From Kiritimatiellia bacterium (GTDB lineage Bacteria > Verrucomicrobiota > Kiritimatiellia > RFP12 > UBA1067): a stretch of DNA of 64,000 nt. The DNA is taken from positions 4,380 to 68,379 of the forward strand of contig JAZLMG010000027.1 in NCBI GenBank assembly GCA_045598585.1. The letters are read 5' to 3'. A program made the translations under genes and the position numbers. Below the pieces are notes generated by a model. That model did no database searches and was not told the origin of the DNA. It saw nothing but the letters and a program-made list of their open reading frames with translations. This document shows, piece after piece, positions 3,550 to 52,953 of this stretch. The stretch's first letter is position 1; the number at the start of each line of letters is the position of its first letter.

Positions 3550-4854
3550 ATGAAAGAAATCGGTGTAGGTATATTGGGCTTCGGCACAGTCGGTGCCGGC
3601 GTTGCGGACGGACTTCTCCGCAATCGCGAGACGTTTGCCCAGCGCCTTGGCGTAGATGTTGTTCTCAAGAAGATAGCTGATCTCGATATCGTTAAAGATC
3701 GTGGCGTCAAGATTCCCGAGGGAGTTCTGACGACAGATGCGGCGTCCGTTATTGCCGACCCTTCGATTCAGATTATCGTCGAACTTATCGGCGGCACGGG
3801 TATCGCGAAGAAGTTCATTCTTGACGCAATCTCTGCCGGGAAGTCGGTCGTTACCGCCAATAAGAAACTCTTGGCCGAATATGGCGCGGAAATCTTCGGC
3901 GCGGCGACGAAGGCGGGCGTTGATATCTACTTCGGCGCGGCGGTAGGCGGTGGTATTCCGATTATCCGATCGTTGCGCGAAGGCCTCGCCGGCAATGAAA
4001 TCGAGTCCATCAAGGGTATTTTGAACGGCACTTGCAACTACATCTTAACGCGTATGGCGCGTGAAGGCGCGCAGTTCGATGAAGTCCTGAAGGATGCTCA
4101 GCGTCTTGGCTTTGCGGAGGCGGATCCGACGCTCGATATTGATGGTTGGGATACGGCGCATAAGGCCTCAATTCTCGCCTCGCTCGCTTACGGCTTTTTC
4201 GTCTCGCCGCATGACTTCGAGGTCAAGGGTATTCGCAATCTCTCTTCGGTCGATGTCACCTACGCGAAAGAACTTGGGTTTTCGATCAAGCTGCTCGCGC
4301 ATATCGGCAGGAAGGGTGATGAGGTCGCTATCTCGGTTGGACCTACATTGATTCCGGAAAATCATCTTTTAGCAGCGGTCAATGATGTCTTCAATGCTGT
4401 CCTCGTTCATGGTGATCTCTCGGACGATTTGATGTTCTACGGTAAGGGCGCCGGACGCGCCCCGACCGCTTCGACCGTTCTTGGCGATATCGGTGACATC
4501 GCGCGTAATATCTCGAACGGCGGCGCTCGCTACAAGAGCGCGATCTCGACGGCGAACGAGGGACTCCTCGCGCTTAAGGTCGCCTCGAACGATACTTCGA
4601 GCTACTATGTTCGTCTCATGGTCGAGGATCGCTGCGGCTGCTTAGGTAAGCTCACGACGATCTTCGGTGAACACGGCGTTTCGATTCTTCAGGCGACGAG
4701 CCATAAGCAGCTCAAGGGCCATGAAGTCGAAGGCGCGATTCCCGTCGTCATTCGTACTCACAAGGCGACTTCGGGCGCGGTTGATCGCGCACTTGAAGAG
4801 ATTGAAGGCGCCGGCATCATCCGCGGCAAAGCCGTAAAGATGCGCATGATATAA
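3550..4854 (+). CDS. hom: homoserine dehydrogenase
   Basis: 434 aa with an N-terminal GFGTVG Rossmann motif and a C-terminal ACT-like region. It sits next to aspartate kinase. Confidence 0.9.
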   Translation: MKEIGVGILGFGTVGAGVADGLLRNRETFAQRLGVDVVLKKIADLDIVKDRGVKIPEGVLTTDAASVIADPSIQIIVELIGGTGIAKKFILDAISAGKSVVTANKKLLAEYGAEIFGAATKAGVDIYFGAAVGGGIPIIRSLREGLAGNEIESIKGILNGTCNYILTRMAREGAQFDEVLKDAQRLGFAEADPTLDIDGWDTAHKASILASLAYGFFVSPHDFEVKGIRNLSSVDVTYAKELGFSIKLLAHIGRKGDEVAISVGPTLIPENHLLAAVNDVFNAVLVHGDLSDDLMFYGKGAGRAPTASTVLGDIGDIARNISNGGARYKSAISTANEGLLALKVASNDTSSYYVRLMVEDRCGCLGKLTTIFGEHGVSILQATSHKQLKGHEVEGAIPVVIRTHKATSGAVDRALEEIEGAGIIRGKAVKMRMI

Positions 4855-31408: not shown

Positions 31409-31423
31409 GTCGCTTAGTTGGGC

Positions 31424-31942
31424 ATGAAGATAGCGTTTATCAGTGATGTGCATGGTGTGCCGTCGACTTTGGAGGCGGCGCTAAGAAAAGCGGACGAGCT
31501 AGGCGCGGAGAAGATCGCGCTTTTGGGCGATCTTCTCTATCATGGCCCTCGAAACGGCGTACCTAACTTCTACGATCCCGTCAAAGTCGCCGAGCTTCTT
31601 AATGAACGCGCCTCTCAGATTATCGCGGTCCGCGGCAACTGTGACGCGGAAGTCGACCAAATGATGCTCAAATTCCCGATTATGGCCGATTATCAAATCC
31701 TCGAGGCGGGGAAAGAGACGTTCTTTTTGACCCATGGGCACCTCTTTAACGAGTGGAAGCTTCCCCCGATAGGAATCGGCACGGTTATGGTCAACGGCCA
31801 CACGCATATCGCTGAAAAGAAGACGCTTCCTTGTGGACTTAAGCTTTTTAATCCCGGCTCTGTGTCGCTTCCGAAGGGCGGAACGCCGCGCAGTTTCGGC
31901 TTTTACAACGGCTCCGACTACTCAATCGTCCCTCTATCGTAA
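31424..31942 (+). CDS. YfcE/MJ0936-family metallophosphoesterase
   Basis: MKIAFISDVHG, GDLLYHGPRN, RGNCD and THGH motifs. Confidence 0.8.
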   Translation: MKIAFISDVHGVPSTLEAALRKADELGAEKIALLGDLLYHGPRNGVPNFYDPVKVAELLNERASQIIAVRGNCDAEVDQMMLKFPIMADYQILEAGKETFFLTHGHLFNEWKLPPIGIGTVMVNGHTHIAEKKTLPCGLKLFNPGSVSLPKGGTPRSFGFYNGSDYSIVPLS

Positions 31943-32025
31943 AGCCCTACCCCTCCTCGGGAGGTGGGTGCCTACCACCCGAGCGGTCCGATTATAGGGA
32001 ATTATACATAACTATAAGCATGTTC

Positions 32026-32054
32026 TTGCAAAAAGCCCTATAGTATGTTATAAT
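32026..32054 (+). promoter_or_regulatory. extended -10 promoter of the AAA+ ATPase gene
   Basis: TTGCAA, 17-nt spacer, TGTTATAAT. The gene has its own SD (AAGGAGG) before ATG 32085. Confidence 0.55.
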
Positions 32055-32084
32055 ATGCTATAGTTTTAATGTCAAGGAGGCGCA

Positions 32085-33254
32085 ATGGATAGACTCAATA
32101 ACCCGTTTACCCCCGGCGCCGGCGCATTACCGCCGGAGCTTGCAGGCCGTTCTCAAATAATAGAGGATGGGCGCGTTCTCGCAGGTCGCATTCTTAAATC
32201 ACGTTATGAGAAAAGTTTGTTGCTGATTGGGCTGCGTGGTGTCGGCAAGACCGTACTTCTTCGTCATTTAGCGGAAACGGCGCGTAAAGATGGTGTTGTT
32301 CCTGTTGTGGTTGAAGTTAGAAGTGCAAAGACTGACATTGAAGAGTTGTCTTTGAGGTTAAAAGAGTCGCTTTCGACAATCGACTTCGCTTCTAAAGTCA
32401 AGGCCAAGGTTAACTATGCGTTCTCTGTTCTGAGTAACTTCGTCAGGGCTTTCGCTATAAATATAGGGGATTTTGGTGTTACTGTCGAACTCGCGCAAGG
32501 GGTTGCATCGTCCGGCAAGATGGAACTTGACCTATCTGAAGTTCTAATAGCTTGCGCACGGGCGGCAAAGGACGCGGAAACCGCCATAGGGCTTTATATT
32601 GATGAGTTGCAAAATCTTGATATTGAGGCAATGAGAGGTATAATTGTGGCACTCCATCGCTCGGCTCAAGAGTCTTTGCCGCTTTACATGGTCGGCTCCG
32701 GATTGCCATCTATTCGCGGGTTGATAGGAAAGAGTAAGACCTATGCAGAAAGAATGTTTAACTACGCGGATGTTGGTGCGTTAAATGAGAGTGATGTCGA
32801 TGCGGCGATAACTATCCCGATGAATGCTAACGGTCTTGACATCGAGCTCTCGGCAATTAAAGAAATCTTTCGCGCAACGCAAGGGTATCCATATTTCTTG
32901 CAAGAGTATGGATATCAAGTGTGGCTTGCGGCAAACGGCGAGTCGATTACCGCCAAAGAGATTCTAAGTATTGGGGAAGCGGTTGAACGCAGATTAGACG
33001 CGAACTTCTTTGATGTGCGATTTGATCGGGTTTCGAACATTGAAAAGTCCATGCTTAGATTCATGGCTGATTTCCCGAGTGAGGCCTCGGTGTCTGTGTC
33101 GGAGTTGGCGGAGCGAATGGGCAGAACGTTGAGTTCATTATCGCCAATACGTTCGTCTTTAATTAAAAAGGGGATGATATATTCGCCCAAGCATGGCTGT
33201 GTTGCATACACGGTGCCGATGTTTGGTGAATATATGAAGCGAGTAATGCCCTAA
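32085..33254 (+). CDS. AAA+/STAND-like ATPase with C-terminal winged-helix (Arch_ATPase/DUF234-like)
   Basis: 389 aa with N-terminal NPFTPGAG…GR, Walker A GLRGVGKT, Walker B LYIDELQ, GYPYFLQ, and a C-terminal wHTH-like SVSELAERMGRTLSSLSPIRSSLIKKGMIY. Confidence 0.65.
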   Translation: MDRLNNPFTPGAGALPPELAGRSQIIEDGRVLAGRILKSRYEKSLLLIGLRGVGKTVLLRHLAETARKDGVVPVVVEVRSAKTDIEELSLRLKESLSTIDFASKVKAKVNYAFSVLSNFVRAFAINIGDFGVTVELAQGVASSGKMELDLSEVLIACARAAKDAETAIGLYIDELQNLDIEAMRGIIVALHRSAQESLPLYMVGSGLPSIRGLIGKSKTYAERMFNYADVGALNESDVDAAITIPMNANGLDIELSAIKEIFRATQGYPYFLQEYGYQVWLAANGESITAKEILSIGEAVERRLDANFFDVRFDRVSNIEKSMLRFMADFPSEASVSVSELAERMGRTLSSLSPIRSSLIKKGMIYSPKHGCVAYTVPMFGEYMKRVMP

Positions 33255-33300
33255 AGTTAAAGCCGCAGTGAAAACTGTGCTGCTGCCACACTGAAAATCC

Positions 33301-33329
33301 TTGCAAAAGGAGCGGGGATTTGCTATAAT
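33301..33329 (+). promoter_or_regulatory. strong orphan promoter (TTGCAA-17-TGcTATAAT)
   Basis: Near-consensus -35 and extended -10 with no start codon downstream before the terminator at 33407-33442. Confidence 0.55.
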
Positions 33330-33335
33330 GTGACG

Positions 33336-33442
33336 ACTTCGGCCAATCTCTTCAAGCTCGAGCTCAAGCTCAAGTAAGAGATAATTAGGTTTAGGCCTAT
33401 ACAATACGCGGCGGTTCTTTAAGGATCGCCGCGCATTATTTT
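33336..33442 (+). ncRNA. candidate ~105-nt small RNA (promoter-to-terminator unit without an ORF)
   Basis: The predicted TSS is about 33336. There is no ATG, GTG or TTG in the interval. It ends in a 7-bp all-GC hairpin (CGCGGCG…CGCCGCG) followed by CATTATTTT. Confidence 0.35.
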
Positions 33443-33489
33443 AGATGATAGGGGTCAGCGGTTTTTGTCCTTAGGGCTTTCCGATTGTC

Positions 33490-33633
33490 TTCAATATTGA
33501 AAACAACTTTCTTCAATATTGAAAACAACCTTTTCCAACATTGAAAACGACTTCCTTCAATATTGAAAATAAACGTCTTCAATATTGAAGAAAAGACGAT
33601 TCAATATTGAAGATAACCCTTTTCAATATTGAA
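33490..33633. repeat. 7 x 22-bp tandem repeat, each unit carrying the 12-bp palindrome TTCAATATTGAA
   Basis: Palindromes start at 33490, 33512, 33534 (degenerate: TCCAACATTGAA), 33556, 33578, 33600 and 33622, giving an exact 22-bp phase. Confidence 0.92.
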
Positions 33634-33733
33634 GATAAACGTAAGGGTAGGGTGCGGAAAACGTGTCGATTCCCAAGGTAAATGTATGCATCGCAATAGA
33701 TAAAAAACACTTGCATTGTCGAGCTGCCGCGTG

Positions 33734-33762
33734 TTGTATTTTGGAGGGATTTGTGGTATAAT
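33734..33762 (+). promoter_or_regulatory. extended -10 promoter of the GH89 gene
   Basis: TTGTAT, 17-nt spacer, TGGTATAAT. ATG 33769 is 6 nt after the -10, so the transcript is probably leaderless. Confidence 0.55.
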
Positions 33763-33768
33763 ATTCGT

Positions 33769-36336
33769 ATGAAAAACTTGATATTATTAGGTGCTGTTGT
33801 AGTAGGTGCGGTTACTTCGTTTGCGGCGCCCAAGGCCGATGAGAGTACGAAGGCTGCGTATGATGTTATCCGTCGTTTTGCGGGCGAAGTCGATCCGAAG
33901 GTCGAGCTGAAGCTCGATGGGGTTAGGGGAATGGGGAACGGGGACTGGTTTAACACCGAGGTGAAGGGCGAGAAGCTCGTCGTTACCGGTAATAGTCCCA
34001 TCGCTCTTACCCGCGGCTTTTATACGGCTACGAAAGCTCAAAAGCGCGGCATGAACAGCTGGGCGGGAAACCGTTTCGCCGCCGAGCCCTGGAAGAAAGA
34101 AGCGGAAGTTACCGGCTCGACTCCGTTCGAATACCGTTACTACTTTAACGTCGTAACTTACGGCTATACGATGCCCTATTGGACTTGGGAGCGCTGGAGT
34201 AAGGAAATCGACTACATGGCGCTTCACGGCATCAATTCGCCGATCACGCTCGTCGCGCAGGAAGCGATTATGGCGCGTGTTTTCAAGAAACTCGGCCTTA
34301 CCGACGATGAGATTCAGAGCTATTTTGTCGGCCCCGCCCATCTTCCTTGGATGCGCATGGGCAATATCTCCGGTCTCGACTCTCCCATGCCGCTCGAGTG
34401 GCACACGGACCAGATCGCGCTCCAGAAGAAGATTCTCAAGAAAATGCGCGCTCTTAAGATGAAGCCGATTACGCCCGGCTTCGCGGGATTCGTTCCGCCT
34501 GCCCTGAAGCGCATCTATCCCGACTTGGAGCTCGTCGAAACGAAGTGGTGTGGCGGCAGATTTCATAACTGGATGGTCATGCCCAATCACCCCGTCTTCG
34601 AGAAGATCGGCACGATGTTCATCGAGGAATATCAGAAGGAATTCGGCAAGAATGATCTGATACTCGTCGACTCCTTTAATGAGATGGAGACTCCTTTCCC
34701 TCCGAAGGGCTCGGCGGAGCGCTACAATCTCATGAACGAGTATGGCGAGAAGGTCTACCGCTCGCTTCACAACGCGAACCCCGACGCGATTTGGGTAATG
34801 CAGGGTTGGATGTTCGGCTACCAGCGTCATGTCTGGGATCAAGACACTCTCGCGGCACTCGTGAAGAAAGTCCCGGACGACAAGATGATCCTCCTCGATG
34901 AAGCCGTCGACTATAATAAGCATTGGTGGCACAATCAGGTCAATTGGGATTTCCACAAGGGCTTTTACAATAAGCTCTGGATCTACTCCGTGATTCCGAA
35001 TATGGGCGGAAAGTGCGGCCTTACGGGCGTCCTCGATTTCTATGCGAATGGTCACTTGGAAGCCCTTAATTCGCCGAACAAGGGTCGTCTCGTGGGCCAC
35101 GGCATGGCTCCCGAGGGCATCGAAAACAATCAGGTCGTCTACGAAATCATGGCCGATGCCGCGTGGCGCACGGAAAGAGCCGATATTCGTCAGCTTCTCC
35201 GCGATTATTCGACCGCGCGTTACGGAAAGTACGATCCCGCCCTCGATACATTCTGGGATGGAATGCTCAAATCTTGCTACGGTAGCTTCTGCGACCACCC
35301 GCAGTTCACTTGGCAGCTCGCCCCCGGGCGTGACGGCAAGGGCTCGATCAAGACGAATGCCGATTATTATCGCGGCATCGAGGCCCTCGCTTCGGTCGCG
35401 TATAAATTCAAGAATTCGCCGCTTTTTGAGGCCGATATGATTGAGATGGCCGTCGCTTATTGCGCGGGTCGAGTCGAAGAGTTGATTATCGAGAGCGAGC
35501 GGGCGATGCGCGAAGGCGAGGACGAGGTAAGCGACACTTGCGAACTCTGGATCGAGCGCCTTCTTATGGCGATGGACCGCCTCCTCGAGTCTCATCCTCA
35601 CTTCTCGCTCGAGCGTTGGATTAAATTCGCCCGCGCGCATGGCGGAAAGAACGAAAAGCTCGCCGATTACTACGAAAAGAATGCGCGCCGCATCGTCACG
35701 ATCTGGGGCCCGCCCGTCGATGACTATGCGTGCAAGGTCTGGTCGGGACTTATTCGTGACTACTATGTCCAGCGTCGTAAGATTTATATCGCCAACAAGC
35801 GCGGCGCTTCTAACGTCAACCGTTCCGAGTGGGAGCGCGAGTGGGTCGAGAAGAAGACGGGTGTAAGCGCCGTTAAGCCCTATCGAGACCCCATTGTCGC
35901 TTCGATTGCAATGGTCCAGGATTCGGCCAAGATTGTGAAGTCGCTCGTCGGAGACGTCAACGCCGCGAAAGTCTCGAACGTTAAGGCGGTCGGCGGCTGG
36001 GATCCGAAGTCGGTTTCGCTCAATACTTGGAAGGATATCGTGATTCCTTGCTCGACTCAGGACATCCGTTCGGGTCGCGCGATTCGCCTTCGCTATATTC
36101 GCGGCAGTGAACGCCTCGAGATTAAGCGTATCGCCATCGAAATGGACGGCAAGATTGTCGCCAAGTCGGAGAAGTTCGGCTTCACCGGCACGAAGCAGGA
36201 AAATAACGTCCTTCTTTACGATATCGGTTCCGAAGTTACCGGCAACAACAGCTGCAACATCGTCCTTACCGTTCGCACGCAGAACTCGAAGGACTCGACC
36301 GGTGCGGTTGAGATCTTGCTGAAAAAGAAGAAATAG
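33769..36336 (+). CDS. alpha-N-acetylglucosaminidase (GH89, NAGLU-like) with a C-terminal beta-sandwich extension
   Basis: Signal peptide MKNLILLGAVVVGAVTSFAAP. NAGLU-like blocks (YYFNVVTYGYTMPYWTWERW, GPAHLPWMRMGN, VDSFNEM, PNMGGK) are followed by about 130 extra C-terminal aa. Confidence 0.85.
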   Translation: MKNLILLGAVVVGAVTSFAAPKADESTKAAYDVIRRFAGEVDPKVELKLDGVRGMGNGDWFNTEVKGEKLVVTGNSPIALTRGFYTATKAQKRGMNSWAGNRFAAEPWKKEAEVTGSTPFEYRYYFNVVTYGYTMPYWTWERWSKEIDYMALHGINSPITLVAQEAIMARVFKKLGLTDDEIQSYFVGPAHLPWMRMGNISGLDSPMPLEWHTDQIALQKKILKKMRALKMKPITPGFAGFVPPALKRIYPDLELVETKWCGGRFHNWMVMPNHPVFEKIGTMFIEEYQKEFGKNDLILVDSFNEMETPFPPKGSAERYNLMNEYGEKVYRSLHNANPDAIWVMQGWMFGYQRHVWDQDTLAALVKKVPDDKMILLDEAVDYNKHWWHNQVNWDFHKGFYNKLWIYSVIPNMGGKCGLTGVLDFYANGHLEALNSPNKGRLVGHGMAPEGIENNQVVYEIMADAAWRTERADIRQLLRDYSTARYGKYDPALDTFWDGMLKSCYGSFCDHPQFTWQLAPGRDGKGSIKTNADYYRGIEALASVAYKFKNSPLFEADMIEMAVAYCAGRVEELIIESERAMREGEDEVSDTCELWIERLLMAMDRLLESHPHFSLERWIKFARAHGGKNEKLADYYEKNARRIVTIWGPPVDDYACKVWSGLIRDYYVQRRKIYIANKRGASNVNRSEWEREWVEKKTGVSAVKPYRDPIVASIAMVQDSAKIVKSLVGDVNAAKVSNVKAVGGWDPKSVSLNTWKDIVIPCSTQDIRSGRAIRLRYIRGSERLEIKRIAIEMDGKIVAKSEKFGFTGTKQENNVLLYDIGSEVTGNNSCNIVLTVRTQNSKDSTGAVEILLKKKK

Positions 36337-36599
36337 GTGAAGAAGTGAGGTAGCCATTTTCGGCTTCCTTATCGACACGAATAGCCTCCAGCGTGTACGG
36401 AATATCCACGAATAGGAGTGGAATTGTCTTGTAGTTCATTCGTGTGTATTCGAGAGGCTTGGTCAGCATTCGTGTGGATTAAAGAGGACTGCGCAAGCAG
36501 TTCAAGTCCGCTTTAATTTATTCGTGCTCCGGCGCGGTAGCGCCTACTCCGAAGGCCTTAACTAAAACACCGCCACTATTGACAGGGGAGGTGGAAAAG

Positions 36600-36655
36600 T
36601 CTATCAGTGAAAACGTCAAAAGTCTATCAGTGAAAACAGGAAATATCTATCAGTG
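36600..36655 (+). promoter_or_regulatory. 3 direct repeats of TCTATCAGTG at 23-bp spacing abutting the -35 of the DUF4143 ATPase promoter
   Basis: Copies at 36600-36609, 36623-36632 and 36646-36655. The first two are embedded in identical 20-mers (AAAAGTCTATCAGTGAAAAC). Confidence 0.7.
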
Positions 36656-47960: not shown

Positions 47961-48893
47961 ATGAATCCTTTAAGAAATAGCAATATTAACTACTGCCAAG
48001 GGTGGTTCTTCGTTACTATCCAAGTGGCGATGAACAAATCGGTTTTTGGTGTTGTTTCCGATAAGAGATTAATTCTTAATGAGTTAGGAAATGCGGTTAA
48101 AGAGAATCTAAGCCGACTTGGAAATATATTCCCGGAATTATATGTTGATACCTTTGTAATTATGCCGAACCATCTTCACGCTATTTTCAAGATAGATAGT
48201 AAAAGCGAGTCGCGGCATCTGTCGTATTTTATAGGACGATTCAAGTCTTTCACAGCGAATTTGTATCATAGAATGGTAAGAGAAGGTGTTTGTATTGATA
48301 TTGGGGCTTCGCTTTGGCAGACTAATTATTACGATAATTTGATAACCGAACATAAGGAGCTGGAAGCCATCAGAGAATATATAAGGAGAAATCCCGAGAG
48401 ATGGGAGGATGACCGTTTTGGCCCGGTTACGACATATTCAAAGGGAAACCTGAAGCTGTTAAATGAGTCTTTGGTGGCATTTGTCGCGTCAGATACTAAA
48501 GATAATTGGCAAGAGGATGTGCCGCATTTAAGAGAGGTGAGAGAGGTTTCAGGACGGAGCCCTATTTCAAAAGAAGCTCCCTTAATATCCACTTTCTCTA
48601 GTTTTGAGGAAAAAGGAGCTTTGTTAAAAAGAATAAATGATAGGTTGCCTTTTATATGGGTAGATCCGGCAGGAATTAAGCCGAATCTTCGTCCTGATAT
48701 TGAATCGGCGATTCTTGAAGGATGGGGATTGGTGATTTCTCCGGTTGAAAGCGGGACGGGACTCAATAAACAACGGGCGATCTGGTGTAATAGATGGATT
48801 ATTAAGGTAGCTAAACGAATTTATGTTGGAACGATAAAGAAGGGTGGTACTCTTGATACATTGTTGACGCACGGAGGCGTCAACCTACGATAA
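47961..48893 (+). CDS. HUH Y1 transposase (IS200-like/REP-associated RAYT, COG1943-type) fused to a DprA-like (SLOG-fold) C-terminal domain
   Basis: 310 aa. The N-terminal ~160 aa carry the HUH motif (MPNHLHAIF), LWQTNYYDNLI and the catalytic-Tyr motif (EYIRRNPERW). The C-terminal ~150 aa resemble DprA at motif level: GNLKLLNESLVAFVAS (compare GNxxLL…vaIVGSR) and GLVISPVESGTGLNKQRAIWCNRWIIKVAKRIYVGTIKKGGTLDT (compare liSE.p.g…F..RNRiI.gls…vvEa..kSGsl.T). Confidence 0.6.
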   Translation: MNPLRNSNINYCQGWFFVTIQVAMNKSVFGVVSDKRLILNELGNAVKENLSRLGNIFPELYVDTFVIMPNHLHAIFKIDSKSESRHLSYFIGRFKSFTANLYHRMVREGVCIDIGASLWQTNYYDNLITEHKELEAIREYIRRNPERWEDDRFGPVTTYSKGNLKLLNESLVAFVASDTKDNWQEDVPHLREVREVSGRSPISKEAPLISTFSSFEEKGALLKRINDRLPFIWVDPAGIKPNLRPDIESAILEGWGLVISPVESGTGLNKQRAIWCNRWIIKVAKRIYVGTIKKGGTLDTLLTHGGVNLR

Positions 48894-49045: not shown

Positions 49046-49147
49046 ATAAGCGATCTCCCGAAAGGTGGGATCATCTGGATGCGGAGGAAAGTCTTCGCGT
49101 TGGTGACGGGAAGTAATTCTCGTCGCCTTCTCATTTTAGCGGCAGGC

Positions 49148-49837
49148 ATGGCAGAGAAAATATTGAGTATATTTGTGGATGAATCGGGGCGCTTTCAGTA
49201 TCCCGATTCCGATTCTCGTTTCTACATTTTGGGTCTTGTATTACACGATCAATCTGACGCAATAGATAAATACGTTGCAGATCTTGAGCGGTCTGAAGAT
49301 GAGGTTGGACTTGAAGGGCATTGTTTTCATGCCGGACCTCTTATCCGCAAGGAGAAGGGGTATGAAATCATGAGTCGTAAATGGCGTGGAAGGATATTCT
49401 CTCGCATGATGGCATTTGCTCAGAAGGTTCCTTTTCGCTATCATTGTCTGAGCGTTGATAAGAAACTTATTGATGATGTTGGCCAGATTGTTGAACGCTT
49501 AGATCGACAACTGGTTGAGTTCATTTCATTGCATCGAATCGACTTGTTCAATATCGAGACTATCAAGATATACTACGATTGTGGTCAGTCTCCGGTTACA
49601 AATCTTCTTCATAAGACATTCGTTGAAGAACTCGGGAAACGGGTGGAGTTTGCGCAAGGAGTACAACCGTCAAGCTATCGGCTTTTCCAGTTGGCAGATC
49701 TCGTATGTACAGTTCATCTAATCGAGCGGCGTCTGGAAGAAGGGGATAGGATGACGATGTCAGAGGTTCGGTTCTTTGGCGGTCCTCGCGACTTCAAACG
49801 AAATGTTTTGAAAAAGCTCAAGGCCAAGGAAGTTTAA
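49148..49837 (+). CDS. DUF3800-family protein
   Basis: N-terminal ILSIFVDESG and C-terminal YRLFQLADLVC are DUF3800 hallmarks. An alternative upstream ATG at 49079 is conserved in the truncated copy. Confidence 0.7.
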   Translation: MAEKILSIFVDESGRFQYPDSDSRFYILGLVLHDQSDAIDKYVADLERSEDEVGLEGHCFHAGPLIRKEKGYEIMSRKWRGRIFSRMMAFAQKVPFRYHCLSVDKKLIDDVGQIVERLDRQLVEFISLHRIDLFNIETIKIYYDCGQSPVTNLLHKTFVEELGKRVEFAQGVQPSSYRLFQLADLVCTVHLIERRLEEGDRMTMSEVRFFGGPRDFKRNVLKKLKAKEV

Positions 49838-49889
49838 TCGAAGTAATCCTGTAAATCCTGTAAATCCTGTCTAAAACAGGACAAGCTAA

Positions 49890-49931
49890 AGAGGCGAGGC
49901 GTGAGTCTCGCCTCTTTCTTCGTCTCCCGCG
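49890..49931 (+). repeat. hairpin element, copy B (hairpin + 3' part; different 5' flank)
   Basis: AGAGGCGAG-gcgtgagt-CTCGCCTCT TTCTTCGTCTCCCGCG, preceded by the TCCTGT-ctaaa-ACAGGA hairpin (49865-49881) and AAATCCTGT tandem 9-mers. Confidence 0.8.
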
Positions 49932-49951
49932 GCGCATTGGCGGGAGGGGGC

Positions 49952-49981
49952 TTGACGAGGTTATCATAATTATGATATAAT
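49952..49981 (+). promoter_or_regulatory. cassette promoter 3
   Basis: GGGGCTTGACG, 18-nt spacer, TGATATAAT. The SD AAGGAGA precedes ATG 50006. Confidence 0.6.
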
Positions 49982-50005
49982 TCTTATCGGTTTAAGGAGA
50001 AGATT

Positions 50006-50302
50006 ATGCCGCCTATGATTAAAGACTCGGATATTCGTCCGATTTCCGACTTGCGCAATAAGTTCGCCGAAATTGCGGATTATGTGCAAGATGGTAATGC
50101 CGTTATCTTTACGCGTAATGGCTATGGTTGCATGGTGACGATCAGTTACGATTCGTTCAAGCGTCTAGGAGATCCTGTGCTTGCTGAATTGCGAGAGGCG
50201 GATCGAAAGTGCGAGCAGGACCCTCGTCATTATACGAAAGAAGAGTCTTTAGCCATTTTGAAGGAGCGCGCTAATGCTCGGCGAAACCGCGTACAGGCTT
50301 GA
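50006..50302 (+). CDS. Phd/YefM-family type II antitoxin
   Basis: 98 aa. IRPISDLRNKFAEIADYV…VIFTRNGYGCMVTISYDSFKRL is typical of Phd/YefM. Confidence 0.8.
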   Translation: MPPMIKDSDIRPISDLRNKFAEIADYVQDGNAVIFTRNGYGCMVTISYDSFKRLGDPVLAELREADRKCEQDPRHYTKEESLAILKERANARRNRVQA

Positions 50303-50621
50303 TATTCGTCCGACATTTATCGACGAGCTTGATCGCGCGGTAGAGTATATCGAGCGCAAATTCAAAAATCCTATTGCGGCAGACAATCTTATTAACGATG
50401 TCTACGCGGCGATAGACGAACGACTTTTTGCGCCGGAATCATACGAACCTTGCTATCGTCCACCGGATGTAACCAAGCCGTATTATCGTATTGATGTGCG
50501 AAACTATTCGATATATTACGTGGTGATTGGTTCGGTAATGGAAGTCCGGTGGTTCAGATATTCAAAGAGCGTTCAGCCTCTTTCCGGATATCCGATCTAT
50601 GAGTCCGGAAGTGTCTGGTAA
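50274..50621 (+). CDS. RelE/ParE-family type II toxin
   Basis: 115 aa overlapping the antitoxin, with a ParE-like core (YRLDIRPTFIDELDRAVEYI…YYRIDVRNYSIYYVVIGSVMEVRWFRY). An atypical C-terminal tail runs into the relic at 50605-50667. Confidence 0.72.
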   Translation: MLGETAYRLDIRPTFIDELDRAVEYIERKFKNPIAADNLINDVYAAIDERLFAPESYEPCYRPPDVTKPYYRIDVRNYSIYYVVIGSVMEVRWFRYSKSVQPLSGYPIYESGSVW

Positions 50622-50667
50622 CGCGAAGGTTAAGTACTTCCGCGTCCGCGTCAAGGCGACCAAGTAA
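50605..50667 (+). pseudogene. relic of a giant-protein 3' end (…PEVSGNAKVKYFRVRVKATK*)
   Basis: Aligns with the giant C-terminus TFTGDKKVKYYKVSVKATK* at both protein and DNA level (GTCAAGGCGACCAAGTAA vs GTCAAGGCAACGAAGTAA). It is out of frame with the parE end. Confidence 0.65.
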
Positions 50668-50709
50668 TCTTGGAAATCCTGTCAATCCTGTCTAAAACAG
50701 GCAAGTTAA

Positions 50710-50752
50710 AGAGGCGAGGAGTGATCTTCGCCTCTTTCTTCGTCTTCCCGCG
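50710..50752 (+). repeat. hairpin element, copy C (hairpin + 3' part)
   Basis: AGAGGCGAGGAGTGATCTTCGCCTCT TTCTTCGTCTTCCCGCG, preceded by the CCTGT-ctaaa-ACAGG hairpin (50687-50701). Confidence 0.8.
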
Positions 50753-50772
50753 GCGCATTGGCGGGAGGGGGC

Positions 50773-50802
50773 TTGATTTTCCCAAGGGTAATATGATATA
50801 AT
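50773..50802 (+). promoter_or_regulatory. cassette promoter 4 (near-duplicate of promoter 2)
   Basis: GGGGCTTGATTTTCCCAAGGGTAATATGATATAAT vs GGGGCTTGATTTTCCCAAGGGGAATATGATATAAT at 49011-49045. Confidence 0.6.
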
Positions 50803-50859
50803 ATAGGCGATCTTTCGAATGAAGGATCATCTGGATGCGGGGAAAGTGCTCCGCCTTAA

Positions 50860-51069
50860 GTGACGGGTTCGCCTGTCACTTTCGCATTTAATAGAATGAC
50901 GAGAAGGTCGCTTAGTGTATTTGCAGATTTAATCTGTACAATTCGCTTTATAGAGGAAGAACTTAACGTTGGCGATGGGATGACATCTTCCGAAGATAAG
51001 TTCTTTGGCGGTCCGAAGGCATTCCGTCATAATGTATTGCGTTATGTTAAGTCCAAGGAAATTCGTTAA
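50860..51069 (+). pseudogene. truncated DUF3800 paralog (promoter, leader and last ~50 codons only)
   Basis: LSVFADLICTIRFIEEELNVGDGMTSSEDKFFGGPKAFRHNVLRYVKSKE aligns with YRLFQLADLVCTVHLIERRLEEGDRMTMSEVRFFGGPRDFKRNVLKKLKAKE of the intact copy. The N-terminal DESG part is absent. Confidence 0.75.
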
Positions 51070-51080
51070 GGGCTTTGTTT

Positions 51081-51167
51081 TCAGCTAAGGCGGACTCGAT
51101 CCCGAAGACCTTCGGCGAAGGTAAGAAGGTCAAGTTCTTCAAGGTCAGCGTCAAGGCGACCCGATGA
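51081..51167 (+). pseudogene. relic of a giant-protein 3' end (SAKADSIPKTFGEGKKVKFFKVSVKATR*)
   Basis: Aligns with SAEAKTVSIPMTFTGDKKVKYYKVSVKATK* (47748-47840), with strong DNA identity (TCGATCCCGAaGACCTTC…AAGAAGGT…AAGGTCAGCGTCAAGGC). Confidence 0.75.
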
Positions 51168-51238
51168 TGCGAGCATCCCCGTGGCAGGCGAAGTAATCCG
51201 CGGCAGAAATGCCCAAGATGTAACAAGAACAACAACAG

Positions 51239-51268
51239 ACGGCTTCGCAAGGAGCCGTTTGTTATTTT
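51239..51268 (+). terminator. second copy of the giant-gene terminator
   Basis: ACGGCTtcgcaaggAGCCGTTTGTTATTTT vs ACGGCTtcgaaaggAGCCGTTTGTTATTTT at 47886-47915. Confidence 0.75.
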
Positions 51269-51338
51269 CCATGTTTGTGCTTGGCACATCTGTGGAGAAT
51301 GAAAATCGTATCTTCCGCTATACTTTGGCGTAAGGGGC

Positions 51339-51368
51339 TTGACAAAGGTGTATCCTAAATGATACAAT
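51339..51368 (+). promoter_or_regulatory. cassette promoter 5
   Basis: GGGGCTTGACA, 18-nt spacer, TGATACAAT. ATG 51375 is 6 nt after the -10, so the transcript is probably leaderless. Confidence 0.6.
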
Positions 51369-51374
51369 ATTGAC

Positions 51375-51662
51375 ATGACAATTCGAGAGACAGAGCTATA
51401 TAAGAAGTGGTTTGCAAAGTTGAAAGATACGGTAGCTAAGGCGCGTATCTTGGTGCGACTTCGTAGAATGGCGCTTGGTAATTTCGGTGAGTATAAGGAT
51501 TTGGGTGATAATGTTTCGGAGTTGAAGTTTCATTTCGGTCCTGGATATCGGATTTACTACACAGAGAGAGATGGCGAGATTGTAATATTATTGGCGGGAG
51601 GCGACAAGTCTTCGCAGACTAAAGATATTGCTAAGGCAAAGGAGCTTGCCGCAAACTTGTAA
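51375..51662 (+). CDS. addiction-module killer protein (HigB-like, RelE/ParE superfamily)
   Basis: 95 aa. GNFGEYKDLGDNVSELKFHFGPGYRIYYTERDGEIVILLAGGDKSSQTKDIAKAK is the canonical killer-protein signature. Confidence 0.85.
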   Translation: MTIRETELYKKWFAKLKDTVAKARILVRLRRMALGNFGEYKDLGDNVSELKFHFGPGYRIYYTERDGEIVILLAGGDKSSQTKDIAKAKELAANL

Positions 51663-51672
51663 GGAGGGTGTT

Positions 51673-51957
51673 ATGAAAACTAAGACTACAATTTGGAAGA
51701 TTGAGAATCACCTTAAGACGAAAGAAGAGCGTGAGGCTTATCTTAACGCGGCGTTTGAGGATGGTGATGCGTCTGTTATTGCTGCGGCGCTCGGTGATAT
51801 TGCTCGAGTTGAAGGTATGAGTAAGGTTGCGAAGAAGTCCGGGCTTGGACGGGAAAGCCTTTACAAAGCTTTGTCGGCTGAAGGCAATCCTGCTCTTGGG
51901 ACGATTATTAAAGTTCTTAAAGCGTTTGATTTTAATCTTCGAGCGGCATGCTTTTAA
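51673..51957 (+). CDS. addiction-module antidote protein (HigA-like HTH)
   Basis: ATG 51673 follows AAGGAGGG. YLNAAFEDGD…GMSKVAKKSGLGRESLYKALSAEGNPALGTIIKVLKA. Confidence 0.85.
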   Translation: MKTKTTIWKIENHLKTKEEREAYLNAAFEDGDASVIAAALGDIARVEGMSKVAKKSGLGRESLYKALSAEGNPALGTIIKVLKAFDFNLRAACF

Positions 51958-51977
51958 CATAGCAAAGCTTCTCCGCG

Positions 51978-52033
51978 CGAGGGGGTAAATTGAGGCGAGG
52001 TGTGAGTCTCTCCTCTTTCTTCGTCTTTCCGCG
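51978..52033 (+). repeat. hairpin element, copy D (full length, degenerate stem)
   Basis: CGAGGGGGTAAATTGAGGCGAGGTGTGAGTCTCTCCTCTTTCTTCGTCTTTCCGCG, flanked by TCCGCG on the left. Confidence 0.8.
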
Positions 52034-52073
52034 GCGATTTTGGTTTGTTTATGCAGTTATTGTTTCGGAATAA

Positions 52074-52113
52074 TTCAGTATTGTTTCAGTACGGATTCAG
52101 TAACGATTCAGTA
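52074..52113. repeat. 4 x 11-bp tandem repeat (TTCAGTA core)
   Basis: TTCAGTA at 52074, 52085, 52096 and 52107, with an exact 11-bp period. Confidence 0.75.
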
Positions 52114-52258
52114 CTGTTGCGGTTTGTTTTTAAAAAGAGGGGACAGTCCCCAATTCGTGGACATTCGAAAGGCGATGCAAGCATTCGTGTTCCCATTCGT
52201 GCCTCGCGCCGGTAGGCGCCAACATCTAATCTTCCGCGGCACTTTGGCGGAATGGGGC

Positions 52259-52288
52259 TTGACAGGATGATATCATATATGATACAAT
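52259..52288 (+). promoter_or_regulatory. cassette promoter 6
   Basis: GGGGCTTGACA, 18-nt spacer, TGATACAAT. ATG 52296 is 7 nt after the -10. Confidence 0.6.
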
Positions 52289-52295
52289 ACATGCC

Positions 52296-52634
52296 ATGAA
52301 TTACGTGACTAAGAAGTATGAACGAGAGAATGGGGCAATTCCCTTCGACGAATGGATCTCGTCGCTTTCGCCGGTATTTCGTGCTCGAGTCTATGCTTAT
52401 CTCACGAGAGTTGAGCTTGGCAATTGGGGTAATGTCAAGTCAATCGAGGGCGAGGATTCGAAAGATCTATTTGAGTTGCGTATGTTCTTTGGCCCCGGAT
52501 ATCGCGCTTATTTCGGCAAAGATGGTGACAAATTGATATTGCTACTTTGCGGAGGCGACAAGAAGACGCAAAAGCGTGACATCAAAGAGGCGAAGATGTT
52601 GTGGAATGAATATCGAAAGAGGAAAGGAGAATGA
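52296..52634 (+). CDS. addiction-module killer protein (HigB-like), paralog 2
   Basis: 112 aa. GNWGNVKSIEGEDSKDLFELRMFFGPGYRAYFGKDGDKLILLLCGGDKKTQKRDIKEAK. Confidence 0.85.
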   Translation: MNYVTKKYERENGAIPFDEWISSLSPVFRARVYAYLTRVELGNWGNVKSIEGEDSKDLFELRMFFGPGYRAYFGKDGDKLILLLCGGDKKTQKRDIKEAKMLWNEYRKRKGE

Positions 52635-52635
52635 T

Positions 52636-52953
52636 ATGGCTTTGACGGTTGATTATCGTGAAGGAGTGTTAAAAGACATCCGGGAAAATCCTGAGGTGGC
52701 ACGCGAGTATTATCGCGAAGCGGTTAAGGCAACGATTAACGGAGAGACGGATGTCGCAAATTCGATGTTTCGCGACCTTGTAAATGCAGGTATCGGCTTT
52801 CAGCGACTTGCGGCCGAAACGGGAATCAGTGCGCCGAATCTTCATCGCGCACTATCTCCACGCGGCAATCCTACTATGAAGACATTTAGTAAGATAGCAG
52901 CTGCGGTCAGTTTGTATTTGGGTTTCCCCACCCCGATGGGAATATTCGGTTAA
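52636..52953 (+). CDS. addiction-module antidote protein (HTH), paralog 2
   Basis: ATG 52636 lies 2 nt after the toxin stop. FQRLAAETGISAPNLHRALSPRGNPTMKTFSKIAAA. Confidence 0.8.
   Translation: MALTVDYREGVLKDIRENPEVAREYYREAVKATINGETDVANSMFRDLVNAGIGFQRLAAETGISAPNLHRALSPRGNPTMKTFSKIAAAVSLYLGFPTPMGIFG

Follow-up and report, generated by a model that had tools for sequence, protein, structure and literature searches.

A non-coding gap in the genome of a Kiritimatiellia bacterium (assembly GCA_045598585.1, contig JAZLMG010000027.1, positions 4,380 to 68,379 of the forward strand; this whole stretch of 64,000 nucleotides is called the window below, and all positions are counted from its first letter) carries an array of seven 22-bp units, each containing the 12-bp palindrome TTCAATATTGAA or a close variant of it, upstream of a gene for a secreted glycosidase of family GH89. 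The array (33485-33638, with no strand assigned) is real, statistically unambiguous and unusual; its cores and their spacing are conserved, and it is specific to this strain. It probably serves in cis as a platform on which a dimeric DNA-binding protein assembles cooperatively. The narrower proposal, that this platform controls or insulates the adjacent GH89 promoter within an imported cassette, is put forward tentatively; protein binding, cooperativity and the promoter target are all inferred.

Exact copies of the palindrome, located both by direct reading and by pattern search, start at 33490, 33512, 33556, 33578, 33600 and 33622, and a degenerate copy with two mismatches, TCCAACATTGAA, starts at 33534; the cores thus occupy 33490-33501, 33512-33523, 33534-33545 (the degenerate one), 33556-33567, 33578-33589, 33600-33611 and 33622-33633, each followed by a conserved R-A-n-A-A flank. 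All six intervals between them are exactly 22 bp, with no indels, and Tandem Repeats Finder reports the same region (33488-33633) with a period of 22 and 6.6 copies. The GC content of the array is 26.6%, against 52.3% for the window. Outside it, no exact or one-mismatch copy occurs in the 64 kb, the three sites with two mismatches (41082, 49547 and 51363) are at chance level (2.85 expected), and none of 100 shuffles reached 10 matches. A first-pass annotation, made from the letters of the window, had reported the seven-copy palindrome at a 22-bp period, with the two-mismatch copy at 33534 and no copy noticed elsewhere, and had described a phased, non-coding array of iteron-like layout in which the sites greatly outnumber those of an ordinary operator; every position was reproduced, the architecture is as it was described there, and a check for single sites of the motif upstream of other genes found none within the window. 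The annotation had also held that a spacing of two helical turns places all the sites on one face of the helix. The 22-bp period stands; the common face does not, except at 11 bp per turn. If a turn takes 10.5 bp, each site is rotated by about 34 degrees relative to the one before it, and the drift amounts to about 206 degrees across the array, so that a shared face would be had only with DNA unwound to 11 bp per turn, the other possibility being a gently spiralling filament.

When the seven units are aligned, pairwise mismatch is 4.8% in the 12-bp cores and 49.5% in the 10-bp linkers, while mismatches to the consensus affect 2 of 84 core positions against 24 of 70 linker positions (Fisher p = 8e-8); the core is perfect in six of the seven units. 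The dyad sites are thus better conserved than the DNA around them, as is expected of an operator array. The conserved unit is longer than the palindrome and asymmetric, TTCAATATTGAA-R-A-n-A-A, and this A-rich flank on the 3' side of the core gives the array a polarity. Linkers 1-3 resemble one another, as do linkers 4 and 7, a pattern such as would be expected if units had been duplicated locally and had then diverged for a long time, and exact repeats within the array reach 20 bp at most. The array is old, and both its palindromes and the intervals between them have been maintained. With the spacers so far diverged, the cores intact, no indels and no longer exact repeat, it is not a recent minisatellite, and a neutral variable-number tandem repeat, in which the units should be near-identical, was rejected on the same figures. 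An array of clustered regularly interspaced short palindromic repeats (CRISPR) was rejected as well: that class needs repeats of 24-47 bp with unique spacers, and here the core is only 12 bp and the 10-bp linkers are mutually related.

The array lies between a short transcription unit and the GH89 gene. On its upstream side, a promoter-like site with an extended -10, TTGCAA-17-TGcTATAAT (33301-33329, + strand), precedes a short non-coding transcription unit (33336-33443, + strand), a candidate small RNA (sRNA) with about 105 structured nucleotides (fold z-score -4.8), which ends in an intrinsic terminator whose stem (33407-33433) has 12 pairs, eight of them GC. The unit contains no open reading frame (ORF) of 20 or more amino acids on the + strand, and Rfam, searched at gathering and at permissive thresholds, returned sub-threshold generic hairpin (microRNA) models only and no family for either the sRNA unit or the array. 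Counted from its promoter (33301-33443), the sRNA candidate also includes a run of CTCAAG/CTCGAG hexamers. About 47 bp separate the end of the terminator hairpin with its T-run from the array, and the array ends 100 bp before the inferred GH89 -35, much as the first-pass annotation had placed them; between the terminator and the array no promoter was predicted, there being only a weak 9-of-12 match inside the array itself. Three further identities for the array were tried and rejected: a coding or small-peptide reading (the 22-bp period is out of frame and gives spurious ORFs only), an array of promoters (the TTGAAA hexamers lack a suitably spaced -10), and a type III toxin-antitoxin system of the ToxI kind (a terminator precedes the array, there is no toxin ORF, and the downstream gene is the secreted GH89).

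That downstream gene (33769-36336, + strand) encodes a GH89 alpha-N-acetylglucosaminidase with a signal peptide and with NAGLU N-terminal, TIM-barrel and C-terminal domains (E = 1.6e-118); in the database its start is annotated six codons further upstream, at a TTG at 33751. Its putative promoter, TTGTAT-17-TGgTATAAT (33734-33762, with the -35 at 33734-33739, + strand), was read by eye from the sequence and is missing from the output of the promoter scan because its -35 matches at only 3 of 6 positions. As 6 nt separate the end of the -10 from the ATG at 33769, the mRNA is predicted to be leaderless or nearly so. Relative to this ATG the array spans -279 to -136, and none of its sites overlaps the promoter.

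A block made up of a metallophosphoesterase gene and an AAA+ ATPase gene (31415-33306, + strand), immediately upstream of the sRNA candidate, shows 95-98% nucleotide identity with related metagenomic strains. The contigs that carry an identical ATPase match the window over this block only, their upstream genes being unrelated, and the homology breaks off at 33306, inside the TTGCAA -35 hexamer of the 33301 promoter. Beyond the break, six contigs continue with a Phd/YoeB toxin-antitoxin cassette and L060 with a third sequence (the contigs compared over window positions 33255-33306 were L057-L062, L138 and L060). Since the sequences differ beyond 33306, the slot that follows the ATPase gene is one where cassettes are exchanged, and it has at least three alleles, namely Phd/YoeB, the L060 sequence, and the sRNA-like unit with the array. 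The YoeB toxin of the alternative allele was found only on contigs of 2.7 kb or less, and the array allele was found only in this genome. No record elsewhere was returned by exact-protein look-ups with the GH89, with the second ATPase or with six small ORFs that span the array; the GH89 protein is a singleton in a collection of about 15 billion proteins, its nearest relatives having 85% and 84% identity.

We propose that the array is a docking platform for a sequence-specific, dimeric DNA-binding protein encoded elsewhere. One dimer would sit on each 12-bp palindrome, and the fixed spacing of 22 bp, about two turns, would bring up to seven dimers into contact and so allow a cooperative nucleoprotein filament to form on AT-rich DNA. 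Palindromic cores suit twofold-symmetric dimers and are counted in favour of this platform, as are the preservation of cores and spacing beside diverged linkers, a period that cannot be read in frame, the lack of an Rfam match and the strong terminator upstream. The platform would have arrived together with the sRNA-like unit and the GH89 gene as one strain-specific accessory cassette, and its likeliest job would be to control or insulate the GH89 promoter, the -35 of which is found 100 bp beyond the array. For a promoter role we count the position of the array, the two other tandem arrays of the window that lie upstream of promoters (36595-36655 and 52074-52118) and an array-promoter-gene geometry that resembles that of arrays in Bacteroidota, described below.

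Several observations weigh against this proposal. A domain search of the neighbours found no regulator gene adjoining the array; simple occlusion is excluded, because no second site overlaps the GH89 promoter; no further copy of the motif occurs in the 64 kb, so that there is no sign of a regulon; and seven sites this far upstream are unusual for sigma-70 control. The two closest GH89 orthologues (those with 85% and 84% identity) stand in tight operons with no array and no upstream intergenic DNA, and a repressor array for the GH89 gene, one of the roles first suggested, therefore agrees with the position of the array and finds no counterpart at either orthologue. No second 22-bp array was found in GTDB genomes, JGI metagenomes or IMG/VR, searched for two palindromes 0-30 or 8-12 bp apart, and none of the hits came from the source lineage. 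Finally, control palindromes form pairs in viral contigs about as often as this one, and the parallels in other phyla may be coincidence.

Another possibility, which we consider unlikely, is that the array is the relic of a replicon, or a still active site that depends on a factor in trans (an iteron origin or a centromere), brought by a plasmid or phage into a chromosomal accessory slot, its binder having been lost or being encoded elsewhere. Direct repeats of 17-22 bp at a spacing of about 22 bp, the layout of an iteron origin, are present, and R6K gamma ori itself has seven 22-bp iterons; likewise the repeated palindromic sites of a centromere are present, seven of them in tandem. The array shares with the iteron arrays of R6K gamma ori, pPS10, RK2, F and P1 a set of about seven direct repeats, a 22-bp period, an AT-rich and non-coding setting, and cores better kept than linkers. 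It differs from them in that its cores are perfect palindromes and that the searches revealed neither a rep gene nor a DnaA box nor homology to plasmids, whereas iterons are normally asymmetric and lie beside a rep gene, DnaA boxes and an AT-rich unwinding element. Palindrome-containing repeats do occur in lambda-type origins and in F sopC, the latter with twelve 43-bp repeats, each containing a 16-bp inverted repeat. Plasmid centromeres (F sopC, and parC of R1 and pSK41) resemble the array in being tandem repeats each with a palindrome, theirs binding a dimeric centromere-binding protein and building a higher-order nucleoprotein complex, and differ from it in adjoining parA/parB or parM/parR operons, none of which was found here. 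Import after evolution elsewhere would also fit an old array with diverged spacers in a strain-specific segment of such low GC content.

The surroundings of the array argue otherwise. The domain search detected no Rep, Par, integrase or relaxase gene in the interval 27.6-38.2 kb, where the flanking genes encode Thi4, the metallophosphoesterase, the AAA_16/AAA_22 ATPase, the GH89 and an AAA_14/DUF4143 ATPase, and no Pfam family of a parA/parB, parM/parR or tubZ/tubR operon is present among the neighbours. Between 30915 and 36369 there is no DnaA box TTATCCACA with up to one mismatch, and the AT-rich DNA is that of the array itself, with no separate AT-rich unwinding element. A blastn comparison of the array with 72,556 plasmids gave no match, similarity to phages was likewise lacking, and no 22-bp array was found in the IMG/VR viral contigs. 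The cumulative GC skew rises steadily across the region, monotonically, with co-oriented chromosomal housekeeping operons around. Beyond the layout of the repeats there is no support for an origin or a centromere, and the first-pass suggestion of a replication or partition site is not upheld.

There remains the relationship to phages and to other bacteria, since the same core does recur. Arrays of TTCAATATTGAA were found in Bacteroidota metagenome-assembled genomes with a period of 21 or 42 bp and, at a 23-bp period, in phages and plasmids of C. difficile; a full-text literature search for the 12-mer returned primers only. In the C. difficile phage phiSemix9P1 (L115, KX905163), four sites of the TTCAATATTGAA type with 23-bp spacing (4050-4145) lie 45 bp after a gene whose product has HTH_36 and Phg_2220_C domains, an architecture like that of replisome organisers, and this array is plausibly a phage origin, seemingly unannotated. 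Its proximity to such a gene speaks for a replicon relic here, and both it and the lambda-type phage origins resemble our array in having a dyad-symmetric site per repeat for a dimeric initiator, with the repeats about two turns apart; in phiSemix9P1 the 12-bp core is moreover identical. Both differ from it in having 3-4 sites and a 23-bp period, and in being located on phage genomes, within or next to the initiator gene; no homologue of the HTH_36/Phg_2220_C protein is present in the window. Among viral contigs, paired palindrome loci number 13 for TTCAATATTGAA and 5, 4 and 21 for three control AT-rich palindromes. Because the controls pair about as often, the identical core cannot be taken as a sign of common descent or of one binding protein in common, and its occurrence in the phiSemix9P1 array is probably coincidence.

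The Bacteroidota arrays centred on AATATT (L014, L016, L028, L031, L033, L068 and L072) are like ours in having this 12-bp core and a period of about two turns and in being intergenic, 90-185 bp before a gene start; those of L014, L068, L031 and L033 end about 90-185 bp upstream of it, and in Paludibacter UBA6032 there are two array loci, each 145-185 bp upstream of a gene start. In L014 (2067-2330) and L068 (790-990) such arrays, with 21/42-bp spacing, lie about 90-120 bp upstream of homologous FN3-containing genes whose products, of about 205 amino acids, are only 28% identical, and in L014 TTCAATATTGAA alternates with TCTAATATTAGA. They are unlike ours in period (21 bp, or 42 bp with alternating core types, against 22 bp), in phylum and in the genes they precede, and may represent convergence; same-core arrays at 21, 23 and 42 bp are probably convergent in general. 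What the Bacteroidota and C. difficile cases do show is that phased palindrome arrays are a recurrent architecture.

It is quite unlikely, in our estimation, that the array belongs to a selfish or structural unit of the BOX type or of the type of miniature inverted-repeat transposable elements (MITEs), extending from 33399 to 33739 and having no dedicated binder, in which the palindromes would be kept by hairpin-mediated slippage or gene conversion and not by selection. Such a unit can be delimited, for the array is bracketed by a 19-nt inverted repeat of which 16 of the 19 positions are complementary (no strand being assigned to either arm): the left arm (33399-33417) overlaps the 5' arm of the terminator and the right arm (33721-33739) the -35 of the GH89 promoter. 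This pair has no second instance in the window, and its alignment score was reached in 1 of 500 shuffles. The two arms pair in the minimum-free-energy fold of a hypothetical 440-nt read-through RNA, and the whole bracketed unit folds as one closed domain (z = -7.4). The genome has a RAYT-type Y1 transposase and repetitive extragenic palindromic (REP)-like elements, the Paludibacter UBA6032 type of array is present at two loci, and pneumococcal BOX elements share the A-Bn-C plan. BOX elements (boxA-boxBn-boxC) and other intergenic MITE-like repeats further resemble the unit in having complementary ends around a tandem module, an intergenic position near promoters, and one large stem-loop. However, BOX has about 100 copies per genome and units of about 45 bp, while here there is one known copy, with a conserved palindromic core and diverged linkers: the unit is single in the 64 kb, and in no GTDB representative genome do two such palindromes lie 10 bp apart within an array of 22-bp period. 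No target-site duplication was seen on reading the sequence, and slippage or conversion would homogenise entire units, not just the 12-bp core, whereas the longest exact repeat is the 20 bp already mentioned.

The gene just upstream invites a further reading, which we judge improbable, in which the neighbouring ATPase would use the array as a platform for loading or recognition, as archaeal Orc1/Cdc6 uses origin recognition boxes (ORBs). The gene (32085-33254, + strand) encodes a standalone AAA+ ATPase (AAA_16/AAA_22) with a C-terminal winged helix and a fold like that of the archaeal ATPases and Orc1-Cdc6, and its stop codon is 236 bp upstream of the array. A structure model, built with 29 homologues and only moderate in confidence (pLDDT 75.7), matched 2fna best (TM 0.60/0.65), followed by 2qby, 1fnn and 2v1u; the archaeal AAA+ ATPases SSO1545 and PAB2304 come first and Orc1/Cdc6, RuvB and STAND NTPases after them, so that the predicted fold includes Orc1/Cdc6 bound to origin DNA among its matches. 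The initial description of an AAA+ ATPase with a winged-helix C-terminus thus appears correct at the level of the fold, by domain search and predicted structure. The family, however, is a very large one of more than 7,700 members, which behave as standalone accessory genes, with homologues also on plasmids of Legionella, Pandoraea and others, beside insertion sequence (IS) elements and toxin-antitoxin genes; relatives with 42-45% identity occur on plasmids of Legionella, Pandoraea, Protochlamydia and actinobacteria. The protein is 100% identical on 13 short metagenome contigs (L056-L065 and L138 were compared) whose DNA differs by about 2%, from which it follows that the coding differences are all synonymous. 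Those of these contigs that reach past the gene have the toxin-antitoxin cassette or other sequence and no array, and no palindromic array was seen in the contexts inspected of homologues with 56-89% identity (six other contexts) or of those on plasmids. A 22-bp direct repeat of 2.9 copies, 750 bp downstream of one homologue, was also considered and proved unrelated in sequence. As the ATPase is widespread and found without the array, their adjacency is not evidence of partnership, and a link between the two is not supported. A joint version, in which the Orc1/Cdc6-like ATPase would use the array as an ORB-like platform and, more broadly, AATATT-centred two-turn arrays would be an undescribed class of platform in Bacteroidota, clostridial phages and this lineage, organising or silencing new cassettes, is just as improbable.

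That the array works at the level of RNA, read-through from the 33301 promoter yielding a long imperfect hairpin of seven palindromes that would act as a double-stranded RNA signal or sequester the 5' end of GH89 through the 19-nt pairing, is very improbable: the array does give a strong fold (-53.9 kcal/mol, z = -10.7), the 440-nt read-through RNA does close the 33399/33739 pairing and other strains have a toxin-antitoxin module in the same slot, but so large a predicted hairpin is trivial where palindromes are repeated, a strong terminator precedes the array with no promoter predicted in between, neither an Rfam match nor a toxin ORF was found, and the GH89 mRNA would be without this structure because its promoter lies downstream of the pairing partner.

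Some other repeats and accessory modules of the window may be recorded here. A 23-bp direct repeat of 2.7 copies at 36595-36655 (AAAAGTCTATCAGTGAAAAC...) abuts the -35 of the gene for the AAA_14/DUF4143 ATPase, which is the PADLOC candidate PDC-S01 (E = 9e-57). Its decamer CAGTGAAAAC is also found at 33266, upstream of the 33301 promoter, and its exact copies in the window number three, each of which precedes an extended -10 promoter. At 52074-52118 there are four 11-bp repeats (TTCAGTAnnGn), the last of them nearly a palindrome, TTCAGTACTGAA; they precede a HigB/HigA-like module (52296-52953) by about 180 bp and have the same outer arms, TTCA...TGAA, as the main array. TTCA-N4-TGAA was tried as a regulon motif and was absent or at chance level. 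The Y1 transposase (IS200-like, RAYT-type, 310 aa) is encoded at 47961-48893, and the REP-like elements (ATTCGTG ... GGCGCTACCGCGCC) occupy intergenic regions at 36430-36545 and 52150-52225, with another at 2590-2668 of L057, after the toxin-antitoxin cassette of that related strain. An accessory cluster at 49079-52953 contains a DUF3800 protein, Phd/ParE (50006-50621) and two Gp49(HigB)/HI1420(HigA)-like pairs (51375-51957 and 52296-52953). Over 1-64000 essentially all the long, real-looking ORFs are on the + strand and the skew rises throughout, and the window ends in a cluster of tRNA-Thr, EF-Tu, tRNA-Trp and ribosomal-protein genes.

The array, then, is iteron-like in form and yet a strain-specific orphan, and the known kind to which it belongs is that of phased arrays of protein-binding repeats. 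So far a single instance, to which no partner protein could be tied, it is of modest general significance. If the cooperative platform proposed here is correct, it would represent a compact, chromosomal architecture in the style of iterons and centromeres outside replication and partition, placed in a slot where strains swap accessory cassettes, and its seven-fold 12-bp palindrome would offer a simple bait for a DNA-binding protein from a poorly studied lineage, probably associated with the rumen or gut.

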